Below are positions 177 to 15,550 of a stretch of DNA of 55,872 nucleotides, piece after piece; the stretch's first letter is position 1; each line of letters starts with the position of its first letter. This DNA is from Pseudomonadota bacterium (lineage in GTDB: Bacteria; Desulfobacterota; Syntrophia; Syntrophales; UBA5619). The position numbers and the translations under genes were made by a program. The DNA is taken from NCBI GenBank assembly GCA_018827585.1, contig JAHJXP010000008.1, positions 1 to 55,872 on the forward strand, in the 5' to 3' direction. The notes under the pieces were generated by a model. The model was not told where the DNA came from and did not search any database. It saw nothing but the letters and a program-made list of their open reading frames with translations.

Positions 177-463
177 TGGAACTGCATCAGATCATAAGAA
201 AGGCGCTGATCACCGAGAAGAGCACCCTTGCCCGTGACGCTGCGAACCAGTACAACTTTGAGGTGAACACGGGTGCGAACAAGATCGAGATCGGGCGGGC
301 CGTCGAGAAGCTCTTCAAGGTAAAGGTGACGGACGTGCGGGTCATGAATGTCCGCGGCAAGAAAAAAAGGACGGGGAAGACCATAGGCGAAAAGCGCTCC
401 TGGAAGAAGGCGGTTGTGACCCTGGCGCCCGGTAACCGAATTGAAACGATGGAAGGCGCATAA
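176..463 (+). CDS. rplW: 50S ribosomal protein L23
   Basis: 95-aa ORF, MELHQIIRKALITEKS...NFEVNTGANKIEIGRAVEKLFKVKV, typical L23. Synteny fits. Confidence 0.95.
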   Translation: MELHQIIRKALITEKSTLARDAANQYNFEVNTGANKIEIGRAVEKLFKVKVTDVRVMNVRGKKKRTGKTIGEKRSWKKAVVTLAPGNRIETMEGA

Positions 464-480
464 ACCGTCTTAATATTGAC

Positions 481-638
481 GCTTTCGTAAAAAGTCGCAA
501 AAACCGAATTCAGGGCGGCTTCGTAAAAAGGCCGAAGGCAAGGCGAGCGAACCCTGAGGAATGAGGCGTACATAGGCGTACACCGCAATGACGAAGGGTG
601 AAGCGTAACGCAGCATCCGGGCTTTTTACGAAGCCGCC
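481..638 (+). repeat. Structured intergenic repeat, copy A (5' CGTAAAAAG module at 486-494, 125-nt core 514-638)
   Basis: The core starts GGCGGCTTCGTAAAAAG and ends CTTTTTACGAAGCCGCC, giving a 17-bp closing stem. It is about 90% identical by hand alignment to the cores at 2212-2336 and 3972-4096. Confidence 0.85.
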
Positions 639-671
639 AATATCAACCCAGCAGGGATGAGGGATAAGGGG

Positions 672-1493
672 ATGGGAATTAAAAAGTACAAACCGACGTC
701 GCCGGGCAGAAGGTTTCAGACCTGTTCGGATTTTGAAGAGATCACCAGAACGGGACCCGAGAAAAGTCTTTTACGCCCGCTGAAAAGGACGGGGGGGCGC
801 AACAACTACGGGAGGATGACCAGCCGCCACATAGGCGGGGGGCACAAGCGCCGGTACCGGCTGATCGATTTCCGGAGGGACAAGCAAGACATTCAGGCCC
901 GCGTGGGATCAATCGAATACGACCCGAACCGGTCGTCGCGGATCGCCCTGCTGAATTATGCCGACGGTGAGAAAAGATACATCATCGCCCCGGTCAAGAT
1001 GGCGGTGGGCGACGCCGTGGTCAGCGGGGAAAATGCCGACATCAAACCGGGAAATACCGTGCCTCTGAAGAATATTCCCCTGGGGACCCTAATCCACAAT
1101 CTGGAGCTGAAGGTGGGCCGGGGGGGTCAGCTGATCAGGGCGGCGGGCGCCTACGGGCAGTTGATGGCCAAGGAGGCGGGCTACGCCCAGGTTCGACTTC
1201 CTTCCGGAGAGGTCAGAAAGGTCTTTCTGGAATGTAAGGCCACCATCGGTCAAGTCGGCAACATCGATCATGAGAACCTGAGCATCGGCAAGGCGGGACG
1301 GTCGCGCTGGCTCGGGCGGCGACCCAAGGTCAGGGGCGTGGCCATGAACCCCGTTGACCATCCGATGGGCGGCGGCGAAGGAAAGTCGTCCGGTGGGCGT
1401 CATCCCTGTACGCCCTGGGGCGTGCCGACGAAGGGACACAAGACCCGCACCAACAAAAGTAGCGATAAATACATCGTAAAGAGAAGAGGTTAA
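672..1493 (+). CDS. rplB: 50S ribosomal protein L2
   Basis: The ORF track frame starts at 657, but the L2 N-terminus [14 protein letters not shown] starts at ATG 672, preceded by a purine-rich SD. The C-terminal GGGEGK...HPCTPWG motif is present. Confidence 0.95.
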
Positions 1494-1496
1494 AAG

Positions 1497-1778
1497 GTGG
1501 CACGTTCAGTTAAGAAAGGTGCGTATATCGAGGAAAGTCTTCTTGAGAAGGTCAGAAGGCAGGAAGCCGCGGGAGGGAAGGCGGTCATCAAGACCTGGTC
1601 GCGCCGTTCCACAATCACCCCGGAATTGATCGGACAGACCTTTGCGGTGCACAACGGCAAGAAATTCATCCCCATCTTCGTGACCGAAAATATGGTGGGT
1701 CACAAGTTAGGTGAATTCGCGCCGACAAGGACATTTTACAGCCACGCCGGAGACCGCAAGACGAAGCTGCGCAAGTAG
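1497..1778 (+). CDS. rpsS: 30S ribosomal protein S19
   Basis: [16 protein letters not shown]...[29 protein letters not shown]. Confidence 0.95.
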
Positions 1779-1837
1779 CAGCGGGCTGCATAGGGGTGGA
1801 CGGGGGGCTATCTCCCATCGGCGGTTTGGAGTAAGTT

Positions 1838-2170
1838 ATGGAAGCAAGAGCAGTTGCCAAGTATATAAGGATGTCGCCACAGAAGGTGCGCCTGGTGGTG
1901 GATCTGGTCAGAGGGAAAAGGGTTGAGGAAGCGAAGCAGATCCTCCTTTTCACGAGAAAATATGCGGCCGGTCCCGTCAGCAAGGCGCTCAATTCTGCGC
2001 TGGCCAATGCAAAGCAGAACCCCAATATCGATGAAAAAATCCTGTTCGTGAAGGAGATCTTCGTCGATCAGGGTCCGTCCCTCAAAAGATGGAGGGCGAG
2101 GGCCCAGGGAAGGGCCGCGGCAATAAAAAAACGGATGAGTCATATCACCGTGGTCCTGGATGAGCAGTAA
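1838..2170 (+). CDS. rplV: 50S ribosomal protein L22
   Basis: MEARAVAKYIRMSPQKVRLVVDLVRGK..., classical L22. Confidence 0.95.
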   Translation: MEARAVAKYIRMSPQKVRLVVDLVRGKRVEEAKQILLFTRKYAAGPVSKALNSALANAKQNPNIDEKILFVKEIFVDQGPSLKRWRARAQGRAAAIKKRMSHITVVLDEQ

Positions 2171-2180
2171 TATTTGGTGG

Positions 2181-2336
2181 ACTCGTAAAATCTTAGAAGC
2201 CATGAAAAAGGGGCGGCTTCGTAAAAAGGCCGCAGGCAAGGCGCGCGAACCCAGAGGAGTGAGGCGTACTTTGGCGTACGCTGCAACGACGAAGGGTGAA
2301 GCGCAACGCAGCATCCGGGCTTTTTACGAAGCCGTC
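2181..2336 (+). repeat. Structured intergenic repeat, copy B (5' module CGTAAAA at 2184-2190, core 2212-2336)
   Basis: Same 125-nt core architecture as copy A. The closing stem is GGCGGCTTCGTAAAAAG / CTTTTTACGAAGCCGTC, with one G.U pair. Confidence 0.85.
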
Positions 2337-2357
2337 AAGACTTGAGGAGGTGGCAGA

Positions 2358-3005
2358 TTGGGGCAGAAGGTTAACCCGATCGGGTTGAGGTTGGGCGGTG
2401 TGAAGACGTGGCGCTCCCTGTGGTTCGCGGAAAAGAATTATTGCGAGCTGCTCCACGAGGATATCAAGATCAGGAAATTCCTCAAGGAGAAGCTCTACCA
2501 CGCGGGCATCTCCCGGATAGAAATCGAAAGGGCCTCCAATAAGGCCAAGGTGAATATCCACGCTGCCCGACCCGGGATCATCATCGGGAAAAAGGGGTCC
2601 GAGATTGAAAAATTGAAGAAGGACCTCGAGGCGATCACCAAAAGCGAAATGATCATCAATATCCTTGAGGTCCGCAAGCCGGAGATTGATGCCCAGCTGG
2701 TGGCGGAAAATGTCGCCCAGCAGTTGGAGCGACGGGTTGCTTTCCGCCGGGCGATGAAGAAATGTGTGACCGCCGCGATGAAGTTCGGGGCAAAGGGGAT
2801 CCGGGTGAACTGCGGCGGCCGGTTGGGCGGGGCGGAAATGGCCAGATCGGAGTGGTATCGGGAGGGCCGGGTGCCCCTCCATACGCTGAGGGCCGATATC
2901 GATTGCGGTTTTACCGAAGCGAAGACGGCATACGGCCTGATCGGAGTAAAGGTGCTGATATTCCACGGCGAGGTGTTGCCGGTAAAGAGAGAGATTGCAA
3001 AATAA
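2358..3005 (+). CDS. rpsC: 30S ribosomal protein S3
   Basis: [24 protein letters not shown]... with KH domain sequence. Confidence 0.95.
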
Positions 3006-3073
3006 GTGCTTTTCGCGAGGGCCGGCGTCCCGGAAGGTGACGAGGACAAGCGGGCAGAACAGGGGTTTTAAAG

Positions 3074-3496
3074 ATGTTGATGCCGAAAAGGGTTAAATTC
3101 AGGAAACTGCAGAGGGGCCGCATGAGCGGGAAGGCCACCCGGGGGAACACCGTGGCTTTCGGCGAATACGCCCTGCAGGCGACCGAGTGCGGCTGGATCA
3201 CGGCAAGGCAGATCGAAGCGGCGCGGGTGGCGATGACGCGCCACGTCAAGCGCGGGGGGAAGATCTGGATCAGAATATTCCCGCACAAGTCCGTGACGAA
3301 AAAACCCGCCGAGACCCGTATGGGAAAGGGAAAGGGCGCTCCGGAAGAGTGGGTGGCGGTGATCAAGCCGGGAGTAGTCCTCTACGAGATAGAGGGGGTT
3401 TCGAAGGAGATCGCCAAAGAGGCCTTCAACCTGGCGGCCCACAAGCTGCCCATCGGAACAAAGTTTCTTGCAAGGGAGATGTCTGATGAAAATTAA
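3074..3496 (+). CDS. rplP: 50S ribosomal protein L16
   Basis: [25 protein letters not shown]... Confidence 0.95.
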
Positions 3497-3677
3497 GGAG
3501 ATCAGAGATCTTAGCATCGGAGAGTTGCAGCAGAAGAACAGGGAACTCGTGGAAGATTACTTCAAGCTCCGCCTTCGTCACGCCTCGGGACAACTGGATT
3601 CTCCTGCCATGCTGGGCCGCGTTCGCAGGGATATTGCCCGTATCAAGACGGTCCTGGTCGAAAAGGAGGAAAAGTAG
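3486..3677 (+). CDS. rpmC: 50S ribosomal protein L29
   Basis: [37 protein letters not shown]. The start was moved to the internal ATG at 3486, which overlaps the rplP end. Confidence 0.9.
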
Positions 3678-3934
3678 TGGAGCAGCGCGGCAACAAAAAT
3701 ACCATCAAGGGTGTGGTGGTCAGCAACAAAATGGACAAGACGATCGTGGTGCGGGCGGAAAGGCTCGTGAAACACGCCGTGTTTCACAAATACATCAAGC
3801 GTTATGTGAAATACAAGGCCCATGACGAGCAGAACAGCTGTCAGATAGGCGATAAGGTTCTCATCATAGAATCGCGTCCCCTGAGCAGGGATAAACGGTG
3901 GCGGATGCTGAAGATTCTGGGGAAGGCAAAGTAG
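3677..3934 (+). CDS. rpsQ: 30S ribosomal protein S17
   Basis: GTG start overlapping the rpmC stop. ...[32 protein letters not shown]... Confidence 0.93.
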
Positions 3935-3937
3935 ACG

Positions 3938-4096
3938 CACCCGTAAAAAGTCATAAAAGCTTTGAACTGGGGGCGGTTTCGTAAAAAGGCCGCAGGCAAG
4001 GCGCGCGAGACCCGAGGAGTGAGGCGTACTTTGGCGTACGCCGCAACGACGAGGGATGAAGCGCAACGAGGCATCCGGCTTTTTTACGAAGCCGTC
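3938..4096 (+). repeat. Structured intergenic repeat, copy C (5' module 3942-3950, core 3972-4096)
   Basis: 125-nt core, with closing stem GGCGGTTTCGTAAAAAG / CTTTTTTACGAAGCCGTC and central hairpin GCGTAC-TTTGGC-GTACGC. Confidence 0.85.
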
Positions 4097-4189
4097 AAAG
4101 TAGGGCGAACAATGGCGCGGGGTTGCTGTGGCTCGGCGGTTAGAGCTTCGGTCCACGGGTTGGGGACCGCTGCGCAGTGGGGTATTGAT

Positions 4190-4558
4190 ATGATTCAGAT
4201 GCAGACCGTGTTGAATGTGGCGGACAATTCAGGCGCCAAGAAGGTGGCGTGCATCAAGGTTCTCGGCGGGTCAAAGAGACGGTATGCCAGCCTTGGCGAC
4301 GTCATTGTCATCGCCGTAAAGGAGGCTCTGCCGAACTCGAAGGTGAAGAAGGGCGATGTGATGAAGGCGGTGGTCGTCCGGACGGCAAAAGAGGTAAGAA
4401 GACCGGACGGTTCTTACCTGAAATTCGACGACAATTCCGCCGTTCTCATCACGAACCAGATGGAGCCGATAGGAACGAGAATCTTTGGACCGGTGGCGCG
4501 GGAGCTAAGGGCAAAACAGTTCATGAAGATCGTATCGCTGGCGCCGGAAGTGTTGTAA
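4190..4558 (+). CDS. rplN: 50S ribosomal protein L14
   Basis: The L14 N-terminus [18 protein letters not shown] begins at ATG 4190. The longer track ORF from 3962 reads through repeat copy C and is rejected. Confidence 0.93.
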
Positions 4559-6722: not shown

Positions 6723-6862
6723 ACAAAGTGCTGAGTGCTGAGTGGGGGCGTTTTGACACTCAGTGCTCCGCACTCAGTGCTCCGCACTCAGTACTCAGCA
6801 CTCAGTACTCAGCACTTTGTACTCAGCACTCAGTACTCAGTGCTCCGCACTCAGCACTTTGT
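6723..6862 (+). repeat. Inverted arm (6723-6742) plus a tandem array of 15 heptanucleotides, consensus ACTCAGY (6758-6862)
   Basis: Read directly as ACTCAGT GCTCCGC ACTCAGT GCTCCGC ACTCAGT ACTCAGC ACTCAGT ACTCAGC ACTTTGT ACTCAGC ACTCAGT ACTCAGT GCTCCGC ACTCAGC ACTTTGT. The upstream ACAAAGTGCTGAGTGCTGAGTG is the reverse complement of the unit pairs. Confidence 0.9.
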
Positions 6863-6876
6863 AATGAGGTAGGACA

Positions 6877-13514: not shown

Positions 13515-13546
13515 CGATTCAGTGATAACCCGGAAAAAGGTTCAAT

Positions 13547-13575
13547 GCAGCAGATGGATTTTTTGCGAAGCCGTC
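13547..13575 (+). repeat. Solo 3'-end fragment of the structured repeat
   Basis: GCAGCAGATGGATTTTTTGCGAAGCCGTC aligns to the last ~30 nt of the cores (GCAGCATCCGGGCTTTTTACGAAGCCGTC). No 5' arm is present. Confidence 0.6.
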
Positions 13576-14161: not shown

Positions 14162-14422
14162 ATGGCTGAACGGAAGGTCGGGGAGGTGGTCAAGTATTTC
14201 GTAAAACCGGGAGTTGCAGCCGTCAAGATCACCGACGGGGAGGTCGGGATCGGGGATACCCTCAAGTTCACGGGACATACCACGGATGTTACCATGCCTC
14301 TCGATTCCATAGAGGTCAATAATCAGAAAGTGCTCCGTGCGGCTGCCGGCGACTATGTCGGCATCAAGGTTGTTGACCGCGTCCGTCCCGGCGATGAGGT
14401 CTTCAAGATAACGGCAGATTAG
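14162..14422 (+). CDS. Small protein resembling EF-Tu domain 2 (translation elongation factor-like beta-barrel)
   Basis: 86 aa. ...GVAAVKITDGEVGIGDTLKFTGHTTDVTMPLDSIEVNNQKVLRAAAGDYVGIKV... resembles the GTP_EFTU_D2 barrel. A good SD (GGAAGGAGG) lies upstream. Confidence 0.55.
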   Translation: MAERKVGEVVKYFVKPGVAAVKITDGEVGIGDTLKFTGHTTDVTMPLDSIEVNNQKVLRAAAGDYVGIKVVDRVRPGDEVFKITAD

Positions 14423-14544
14423 GCGCGCCGGCTGCAGGGGGCTGTGCCCCGGTTTGCCAACGGCAGGCGTACCCGCAGCCGCGGGGATGAGCCGGCGCAG
14501 TTATACTGTTGCCTGTTTGCGTGATCCGTGAATGAAGGGTGGCG

Positions 14545-14755
14545 ACCTCGTAAAAAGTCTTAAAAGTCGCGAAAAGGAGACGACTTCGTAAAAAGGCCCC
14601 CGGCCTTCGCCGGGGCAGGCTCCGGCAAGGCGCGCAAGTACCCTCCCTCAGGAATGAGGCGTACTGTGGCGTACGCCGCAATAAGCCTGCCCCTGCGGAA
14701 GCAGGGGAAGGATGAAGCTTTAGCGCAGCATCCGGACTTTTTTTACGAAGTCGTC
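14545..14755 (+). repeat. Structured intergenic repeat, copy D (5' module 14549-14557, expanded 177-nt core 14579-14755)
   Basis: It has the same ends, with compensatory changes GACGACTTCGTAAAAAG / CTTTTTTTACGAAGTCGTC. It has the same central hairpin and two inserted hairpins, at 14598-14615 and 14690-14707. Confidence 0.85.
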
Positions 14756-14769
14756 AAGGGTGGCGGAGA

Positions 14770-15550
14770 ATGGAAATCAGGGTGTTGGGTTGCCATGGTT
14801 CACAGATCGCCGGATACGGCCTTACGGGTTTTCTGATCGACTCGAAGACCCTGCTCGATGCCGGAGCGGTGACGTCGGCCCTGACACTCGAAGAGCAGGC
14901 CGGTGTTGAGAATATCCTGCTCACCCACGCCCATCTGGATCACATCCGGGAGCTTGCCTCCCTGGTTGACAATATCGGCTATTTCAACCGGGACCATCCG
15001 CTGACGGTCGTCGCCCCCCCCCTTTGTGATCGAGATGCTCAGGAAGCACATCTTCAACGGCGTCATCTGGCCCGATTTTTCCGTCATCCCCAGTGCAAAG
15101 AAGCCGGCTATGCGGTATCTCGCCATCCGACCGGGCGAAAAGCTGCAAATCGGCCGACTCAGCGCCACCGCCATCCCGGTCAATCACAAGGTGGAGACGG
15201 TCGCCTATGTAGTGGAAACGGGGGATGAAGGCGGCAAGGTCGCCGCAGTCTTTGTCGGGGACACCGGACCGACGGACGAGATCTGGCGGGTGGCGGGGCG
15301 GGTGGACGGCATCCGGGCCATTTTTATCGAGACCTCGCTGCCGGAAGAGATGAGGGACGTAGCCGAACTGAGCGGCCACCTGACCCCTGCGGGTCTCGCC
15401 GGTGAACTGGATAAACTGGGGCCGTTTCCCCACGGGATCTACCTCTACCACATGAAAGTCCAGTATCGCGAGGAGATAAGGCGCGAGATCGACCGGTTGG
15501 GCATCCCCAATATTCACATCCTGCAAGACGGTCAGGTGATCCGGATCTGA
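14770..15550 (+). pseudogene. Class II 3',5'-cyclic-nucleotide phosphodiesterase-like MBL-fold hydrolase, interrupted by a +1 frameshift in a C9 tract
   Basis: Two overlapping ORFs (14770..15228 and 15026..15550) together make one roughly 260-aa protein. It has the LLTHAHLDHI metal motif and ...LRKHIFNGVIWPDFSVIP... Removing one C from C9 (15014-15022) restores ...LTVVAPPFVIEMLRKHIF... Confidence 0.8.

Follow-up and report, generated by a model that had tools for sequence, protein, structure and literature searches.

What enlarges the spacers of a ribosomal protein operon that is normally compact? This question is raised by a 55,872-nt stretch of DNA from a bacterium of the Syntrophales (contig JAHJXP010000008.1 of assembly GCA_018827585.1; hereafter the window). 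The window opens with a ribosomal protein cluster encoded entirely on the + strand (rplW, rplB, rpsS, rplV, rpsC, rplP, rpmC, rpsQ, rplN and onward), and three spacers of its S10/spc operon each hold one copy of a conserved 125-nt core. An original prediction, made by reading the sequence of the window, regarded these cores as an RNA-like element under orientation-specific constraint and listed a non-autonomous selfish element among several other options. The evidence presented here favors that last option. We conclude that the copies very probably represent a non-autonomous transposable element, of the class of small transposable elements with inverted repeats known as MITEs, that belongs to a large superfamily, apparently undescribed, whose terminal inverted repeats (TIRs) are its defining feature. 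It is apparently an undescribed family of a known kind and not a new regulatory RNA.

Structure of the copies and their target-site duplications

The three cores lie on the + strand at 514-638 (copy A, between rplW and rplB), 2212-2336 (copy B, between rplV and rpsC) and 3972-4096 (copy C, between rpsQ and rplN), within spacers of 208, 187 and 255 nt, respectively. Their positions and lengths are as originally predicted, alignment gives an identity of approximately 90%, and they are necessarily co-transcribed within the operon. The window contains seven occurrences of a 21-nt arm motif, compared to none in 100 shuffles. Each core folds into one long hairpin (-62 to -67 kcal/mol, z = -6.4 to -7.2) closed by arms of 17-21 bp, which serve as the TIRs. 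The CGTAAAAAG motif upstream of each core had been noticed in the original prediction as a third copy of a short sequence; it is present, but instead of a loose motif it is part of a duplicate of the entire left arm in direct orientation (GAYGnnCTCGTAAAAAGTC), which is followed by a short spacer. This outer left arm, too, matches the right arm in inverted orientation. The left module is kept in all four of the full copies in the window, and with this module included the complete units are 161-215 nt long.

Once the upstream left arm is counted as part of the element, target-site duplications (TSDs) become visible, and the earlier statement that none can be seen is overturned: copies A, C and D (copy D is described below), like dozens of relatives, lie between direct repeats of 6 bp. 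For copy A, the left duplication AATATT (472-477, +), which fits the family consensus AANNTT, matches the right duplication AATATC (639-644, +) at five of six positions. Between them lie the left module (478-513, +), consisting of the outer left arm GACGCTTTCGTAAAAAGTC, a direct repeat of the left arm of the hairpin, plus spacer, and the hairpin itself (514-638, +), which scores 130 bits with the covariance model on the + strand vs 48 bits on the - strand and folds at -62.3 kcal/mol (z = -7.2). Copy C carries an exact repeat, AAAGTA, at 3928-3933 (+), where it includes the TA of the rpsQ stop codon TAG, and at 4097-4102 (+); it encloses a left module with the outer left arm GACGCACCCGTAAAAAGTC and spacer (3934-3971, +) and a hairpin (3972-4096, +) that scores 126 bits and folds at -66.6 kcal/mol with a 21-bp closing stem. 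Copy B comprises a left module with the outer left arm GGTGGACTCGTAAAATC and spacer (2176-2211, +) and a hairpin (2212-2336, +; 138 bits, -66.3 kcal/mol). Its right duplication AAGACT (2337-2342, +) is followed by the intact rpsC ribosome-binding site GAGGAGG and aligns with the empty sites of the relatives L135-L137, and its degenerate left duplication AATATTT (2169-2175, +) overlaps the rplV stop codon and has diverged from AAGACT since insertion.

The original prediction placed three insertions in the operon. All three are confirmed, but the window holds more: a fourth full copy and a remnant are also present, for a total of four full copies and one remnant. Copy D, with its duplications, spans 14535-14761 (+) between a small gene (14162-14422) and a gene for a putative metallo-beta-lactamase-fold protein, and is made up of the TSD AAGGGT (14535-14540), a left module (14541-14578), a 177-nt hairpin with two additional internal stems (14579-14755) and a second AAGGGT (14756-14761). 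The remnant, the 3' arm of an older copy with 79% identity to the 3' end of copy B, lies in the spacer between rpoA and rplQ (13543-13575, +). No further copy was found by the covariance-model search in the remaining 40 kb of the window.

Empty sites in related genomes

Comparison with close strains (L129-L133, 98-99.7% identity) and with more distant Syntrophales relatives (L135-L139, in which the S3 protein is 93-94% identical) resolved the insertion sites. Each of the close strains examined carries the three operon insertions, and L134, a 92%-identical relative, has copy B, the sole one that its contig spans. In L135-L139, the corresponding spacers are merely 48, 19 and 79-95 nt long and free of the element, so that the empty sites are clear. 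At the exact junctions, the relatives have a single AAAGTA, and CAGTAAGACTTGAGG. At the end of rpsQ, the empty site in L136 and L137 reads ...GGCAAAGTAGATTGC..., with a single AAAGTA, and the empty site between rplV and rpsC reads ...CAGTAAGACTTGAGGAGG... in the relatives. Given the single targets in these aligned junctions, the window differs from them by a clean insertion plus a six-base duplication. The insertion at rpsQ falls on the stop codon itself, and the insertion at rplV parts the stop codon from the Shine-Dalgarno sequence of rpsC, which is left intact downstream of the element. In an ancestor of this Syntrophales species, the S10/spc operon received three independent insertions, each between a stop codon and the ribosome-binding site that comes next, and further copies inserted downstream of them.

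A widespread superfamily defined by its arms

The arms of the superfamily can be written as GAYGGnTTCGTAAAAAG ... CTTTTTACGAAnCCRTC. Scanning one genome per species for two such arms 80-110 nt apart identified at least 117 loci in other genomes that bear the arm pair. Among the matches listed, the hosts are mostly Thermodesulfobacteriota of the Syntrophales and Desulfobacterales, including Desulfosarcina cetonica JCM 12296 and D. variabilis Montpellier, and further hosts are metagenome-assembled genomes labelled Nitrospirae, Thermodesulfovibrio, Neomarinimicrobiota, Cloacimonas and Acidobacteriota. Arms of this kind surround several unrelated interiors. Type 1, the kind found in the window, has an outer left arm and a short spacer, followed by the 125-nt hairpin, which is made up of an inner left arm, a right arm and the palindromic interior between them. 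Type 2 consists of plain arm-interior-arm units. The outer left module is present in 51 of the 73 type-1 relatives.

An exact 6-mer TSD stands at the expected position in 29 of 70 type-1 elements, with a further 24 having one mismatch, and in 15 of 50 type-2 elements; 1.2% would be expected by chance in either case. Each of the 44 exact TSDs has A as its first base, and reconstruction of the target gives the palindrome yC|AANNTT|rA. The element inserts with a fixed 6-bp staggered cut at this palindromic sequence and leaves 6-bp direct repeats, and its AT-rich target sites are often at or just after stop codons. Because the ends of the element read ...T|GA and TC|A..., each junction creates a TGA, and in many loci a gene on the opposite strand stops exactly at the junction TGA.

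Several other observations were made on members of the superfamily. One copy (L047, 6573-6743) bears a tandem array of three left arms, with a period of 26 nt, in place of the usual two (see also L046, L063 and L037), and several 8-kb loci hold at least two copies, implying a high density of the family in these genomes. Many type-2 interiors are GTCATTCCGGCGAAAGCCGGAATCCAG-type hairpins (e.g., L044, 5561-5693, and matches H3 and H5 from the plasmid collection). A 37-nt stretch has 86-89% identity to repeats in Neisseria gonorrhoeae and Azospirillum records, and this smaller palindromic module seems to be shared across very distant bacteria. A type-2 member was also found on a contig classified as viral (IMGVR_UViG_3300008516_001899; L008, 5664-5796), beside a run of GTTTCAA tandem repeats.

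The element does not correspond to a known RNA, gene, terminator or promoter

Consistent with the original prediction that the element is not a named RNA family, Rfam returned no match at the gathering score in the window and none in 12 other loci with family members, and relaxing the threshold to E values of up to 10 over positions 400-4300 produced only noise. No terminator-like site was called on either strand for copies A-C, whose stems are followed by AAG, AAA or AAT and not by the T run of an intrinsic terminator. Promoter and terminator scans gave nothing above shuffle expectation in the elements, and neither scanning nor inspection of the left-module consensus revealed a consensus promoter there.

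Translation of the hairpin matches at least 21 clusters (P0001-P0021) of spurious 44-79-aa open reading frames (ORFs) in public metagenome predictions. That the element is a gene for a small basic protein, as those annotations would have it, is effectively refuted, even though the 21 clusters carry the sequence and no stop interrupts the frame in copies B and C. The frame has an in-frame stop in copy A and is open in just 18 of 76 copies, the lengths of the elements (120-137 nt) are not multiples of three, and there is no codon periodicity: the third codon position is the least variable, with no third-position excess, and base pairing accounts for the variation. One of the clusters translated from the element is annotated as an 'IS4 transposase' by JGI, yet it lacks a Pfam domain. 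One of the clusters sits between leuA-like and yrdC-like genes (see also L001, 10001-10156).

Orientation and rate of evolution in the host

Gene context was determined with a codon-usage scorer that recovers all genes of the window. Between co-directional genes, 18 of the 78 type-1 copies are in the sense orientation, three of them being those of the window, and 23 are antisense; a further 11 lie between convergent and two between divergent genes. Outside the window, there are therefore 15 sense and 23 antisense copies between co-directional genes. Neither local GC skew (40 vs 37) nor the strand of the local genes (39 vs 38) shows a relationship to orientation.

Among the strains, 7 of 485 positions in the elements segregate (1.4%), compared to 45 of 2153 third codon positions (2.1%) and 20 of 683 positions in other spacers (2.9%). 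These rates are not significantly different, indicating that the resident copies evolve about neutrally within the species. Two hints of constraint were rejected. Summed pairwise differences between strains pointed in that direction, but the signal was gone once each segregating site was counted a single time. Copy B differs from its counterpart in L134 at one position in 158 nt, compared to a divergence of 16.6% at third codon positions; this comparison is uninformative on purifying selection, because the whole of 891-2390, flanking genes included, is a near-identical mosaic tract. The L134 contig (ENA ERZ4902948 k141_951722, aligned to window positions 791-3935) is near-identical to the window across 891-2390, but from 2391 on the divergence is 10-12%, reflecting either recombination between lineages or a chimeric assembly.

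Covariation and strand-specific folding

An alignment of 76 distinct type-1 hairpins was compared to a reference structure taken from copy B. This structure is held in 95.5% of the alignment cells, and 22 of its 41 pairs have changed on both sides, values that none of 500 shuffles reached; sliding the pair partners lowers the pairing to 34-45%. Position 6 of the arm, for example, pairs variously as C-G, U-A, A-U or G-C depending on the subfamily. The G·U pairs to which the original prediction drew attention were confirmed (copies B and C have G2·U124, and copy C also has U6·G120), and its expectation of weaker antisense pairing is borne out, as the antisense strands of cores A-C fold at -51 to -61 kcal/mol. 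The same asymmetry extends to the family: of the 78 copies, 70 have the more stable fold on the top strand (means of -63.2 kcal/mol for the top and -54.8 kcal/mol for the bottom strand, p = 2e-13).

Search for a transposase

As originally predicted, there is no transposase near the copies in the window. Arm pairs 0.6-4 kb apart were found to enclose cytochromes, regulators and the like, with no transposase among them, and no recurrent transposase was present among 489 flanking proteins, in which the recurrent families checked belong to ordinary metabolism and transport (ABC transporters, acyl-CoA dehydrogenases, thiolases and similar). BLAST searches against plasmids gave no informative match for an autonomous parent. 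Because neither a parent nor a transposase was found, we infer the chemistry of transposition from the elements themselves. MITEs have been defined as non-coding elements of less than 500 bp with TIRs, flanking direct repeats and a stable stem-loop (PMC10969869). The present copies are smaller than 500 bp and dispersed, have TIRs and TSDs with corresponding empty sites (L135-L139) and lack coding capacity; all structural features of a MITE are thus in place except for an identified parent insertion sequence.

Other features of the operon and its surroundings

Copy C affects the apparent extent of rplN. The rplN frame is open upstream through all of copy C from a TTG at 3962 (3962-4558), and ORF-based gene callers can therefore extend the gene by 76 codons beyond its conserved start, the ATG at 4190. 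Just after copy D are two overlapping + strand ORFs (14770-15228 and 15026-15550) that have the appearance of a frameshifted or mis-assembled gene, the first of which, judging by eye, may encode a metallo-beta-lactamase-fold protein.

A second, unrelated repeat enlarges another spacer of the same operon. Between rplF and rplR (6726-6875), a 7-nt unit (CACTCAG/TACTCAG/TGCTCCG) is repeated in tandem 14.6 times. The same unit stands in inverted form, AAAGTGCTGAGTGCTGAGTG, ahead of this array, and the spacer can therefore form a long hairpin. This spacer is 157 nt long in the window, compared to about 52-100 nt in the relatives L136 and L138.

Transposition, domestication or a single-stranded intermediate

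The combination of TIRs, TSDs and a palindromic target suggests that a DDE-type transposase acting in trans may move the element by recognizing its arms, for which the duplicated left arm might provide an extra binding site. The copies would persist in the operon since they leave coding sequence and ribosome-binding sites unharmed and contain no terminator in this orientation. Within the polycistronic mRNA, each is predicted to fold into a very stable hairpin with a closing stem of 17-21 bp, plausibly a substrate of RNase III or a barrier to decay by analogy with Correia elements, and any such effect would be a side effect and not the reason for the existence of the sequence. Several observations weigh against this account. 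No autonomous parent or transposase with these ends was found among the arm pairs, the 489 flanking proteins or the plasmids, and the left repeat of copy B has decayed (AATATTT vs AAGACT). Within the window, every full copy (four of four), and the remnant as well, is oriented in the sense direction, a mildly unlikely outcome with a chance of about 0.02-0.06 (approximately 0.02 for the four copies) at the family sense fraction of approximately 0.39; this may be due to chance or to polar effects of the other orientation. Moreover, there is no obvious reason why a purely double-stranded DNA transposon would accumulate compensatory changes along its whole interior or show a strand-specific folding bias. 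Across the 76-hairpin alignment, G·U cells outnumber A·C cells by 174 to 31. When only private deviations are considered, i.e., those in one copy whose three nearest relatives are all Watson-Crick, there are 54 G·U vs 26 A·C (p = 0.002), and the matching mutation types in unpaired columns, which served as the control, are balanced (21 vs 22).

An RNA-level explanation would be that the sense hairpins were recruited after insertion as processing or stabilizing signals of the S10/spc mRNA, serving as RNase III or RNase E sites, as decay barriers or in the uncoupling of translation, and are now maintained as domesticated cis-acting RNAs. The uniform sense orientation in the window, the presence of the three operon insertions in every close strain examined (and of copy B in L134) and the sense RNA folds, better than the antisense by 2-15 kcal/mol, would all fit this proposal, as would the private G·U to A·C ratio, which peaks in sense copies (20:5), and there is a precedent in the cleavage of Correia TIRs by RNase III (PMC10969869). 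However, sister lineages run the same operon free of the element, the rate within the species is near neutral (1.4% vs 2.1% and 2.9%, not significant), a mosaic tract that takes in the flanking genes too accounts for the apparent conservation of copy B in L134, and in other genomes antisense copies are just as tight between co-directional genes. Furthermore, a constraint at the mRNA level would predict the reverse bias in antisense copies; the G·U excess that is seen there (14:8) speaks against it. We therefore consider domestication improbable. The claim of an RNA-level, orientation-specific constraint in the original prediction survives in part, in that the G·U asymmetry is found family-wide, but the 15 sense vs 23 antisense copies elsewhere, the antisense G·U excess and the near-synonymous rates do not agree with it. 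Given the mixed orientation, this antisense excess and the near-neutral rates, the folding bias looks intrinsic to the lineage of the element and not imposed by the ribosomal operon. The original prediction had itself named an Rfam match, or copies in both orientations with TSDs and no supported covariation, as findings that would speak against a novel RNA. Since copies in both orientations carry TSDs, these findings were largely obtained, although the covariation is statistically strong and Rfam gave no match.

An alternative is that a single strand of fixed polarity takes part in the life cycle of the element, either through folding of top-strand single-stranded DNA in the manner of IS200/IS605, REP and attC elements or through a structured RNA of its own. 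The better folding of the top strand in 70 of 78 copies, the double changes in 22 of 41 pairs with 95.5% of cells paired and the private G·U excess (54 vs 26, against 21 vs 22 in unpaired controls) speak for such a cycle, the bias is seen regardless of the direction of host transcription, and the extra left arm provides built-in polarity. Nevertheless, TIRs combined with duplications of a fixed 6 bp at a palindromic target are the hallmark of double-stranded transposition, whether cut-and-paste or copy-and-paste, and to our knowledge IS200/IS605, REP and attC elements make no such target duplications. In addition, orientation has no correlation with GC skew or gene strand, as would be expected if the lagging-strand template were targeted, the left module has no consensus promoter, and the copies are related by descent, so that part of the bias may be inherited. 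On balance, this alternative appears unlikely. There is a similarly small chance that the family propagates via a fixed-polarity single strand, as a top-strand DNA hairpin or an element-encoded structured RNA, yet makes fixed 6-bp TSDs, a combination that we know of in no described bacterial transposon class; if so, polarity would be set by a signal in the form of the extra left arm. A non-autonomous MITE remains the explanation that we favor.

Relationship to known repeat families

The closest analogues of the element in behavior are the Correia, ERIC and Chunjie elements. Correia (NEMIS) elements of Neisseria and ERIC (IRU) elements of Enterobacteria are likewise non-coding, approximately 100-200 bp long and dispersed in many copies, with TIRs and imperfect palindromes over their whole length; they also insert between genes, often beside gene ends, and are co-transcribed into stable RNA hairpins. 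Correia elements have a TA target duplication and a 26-bp TIR. The duplication in the present family is 6 bp at AANNTT, a difference drawn from established features of Correia elements and not from direct comparison of consensus sequences. There is no detectable sequence relationship to either family, the hosts here are Desulfobacterota and other anaerobes, and, unlike Correia and ERIC elements, the type-1 members have a second direct left arm that makes them polar. Transcripts containing Correia elements are cleaved by RNase III at the TIRs (PMC10969869). Chunjie, as described in the account that cites it, is a MITE of Geobacter uraniireducens Rf4 that measures 178-235 bp and sits in an operon (Chen et al. 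2008, cited in PMC10969869). By this description, it resembles the present family in being a MITE of a former deltaproteobacterium located in an operon.

The REP/BIME elements and the palindromic elements derived from IS200/IS605, which are mobilized as single strands by a Y1 transposase, resemble the present family in forming hairpins outside genes, in having a folding signal specific to one strand and in their high copy number. They are shorter, lack TIRs and TSDs, and have an orientation bias with respect to the replication strand. The present family differs in its clear 6-bp TSDs and the absence of a GC-skew or gene-strand bias. Our literature searches returned no description of the arm sequence or of MITEs in Desulfobacterota or in ribosomal operons, and the arm motif TTCGTAAAAAG was not found in the microbial-repeat literature searched.

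Implications

Recent transposon insertion, and not a new ribosomal regulatory RNA, explains the 190-250-nt spacers in the normally compact S10/spc operon of this organism. More broadly, the arms, the 6-bp duplication and the AANNTT target define a widespread repeat superfamily of Desulfobacterota and neighboring anaerobe phyla, one that pollutes protein databases with spurious small ORFs and can mislead gene callers, as in the case of rplN. Its strand-specific folding bias poses a small question on how such elements move. The copies in the operon provide natural test cases of the tolerance of a hairpin of 125 nt and -65 kcal/mol by the mRNA that a cell expresses most highly.

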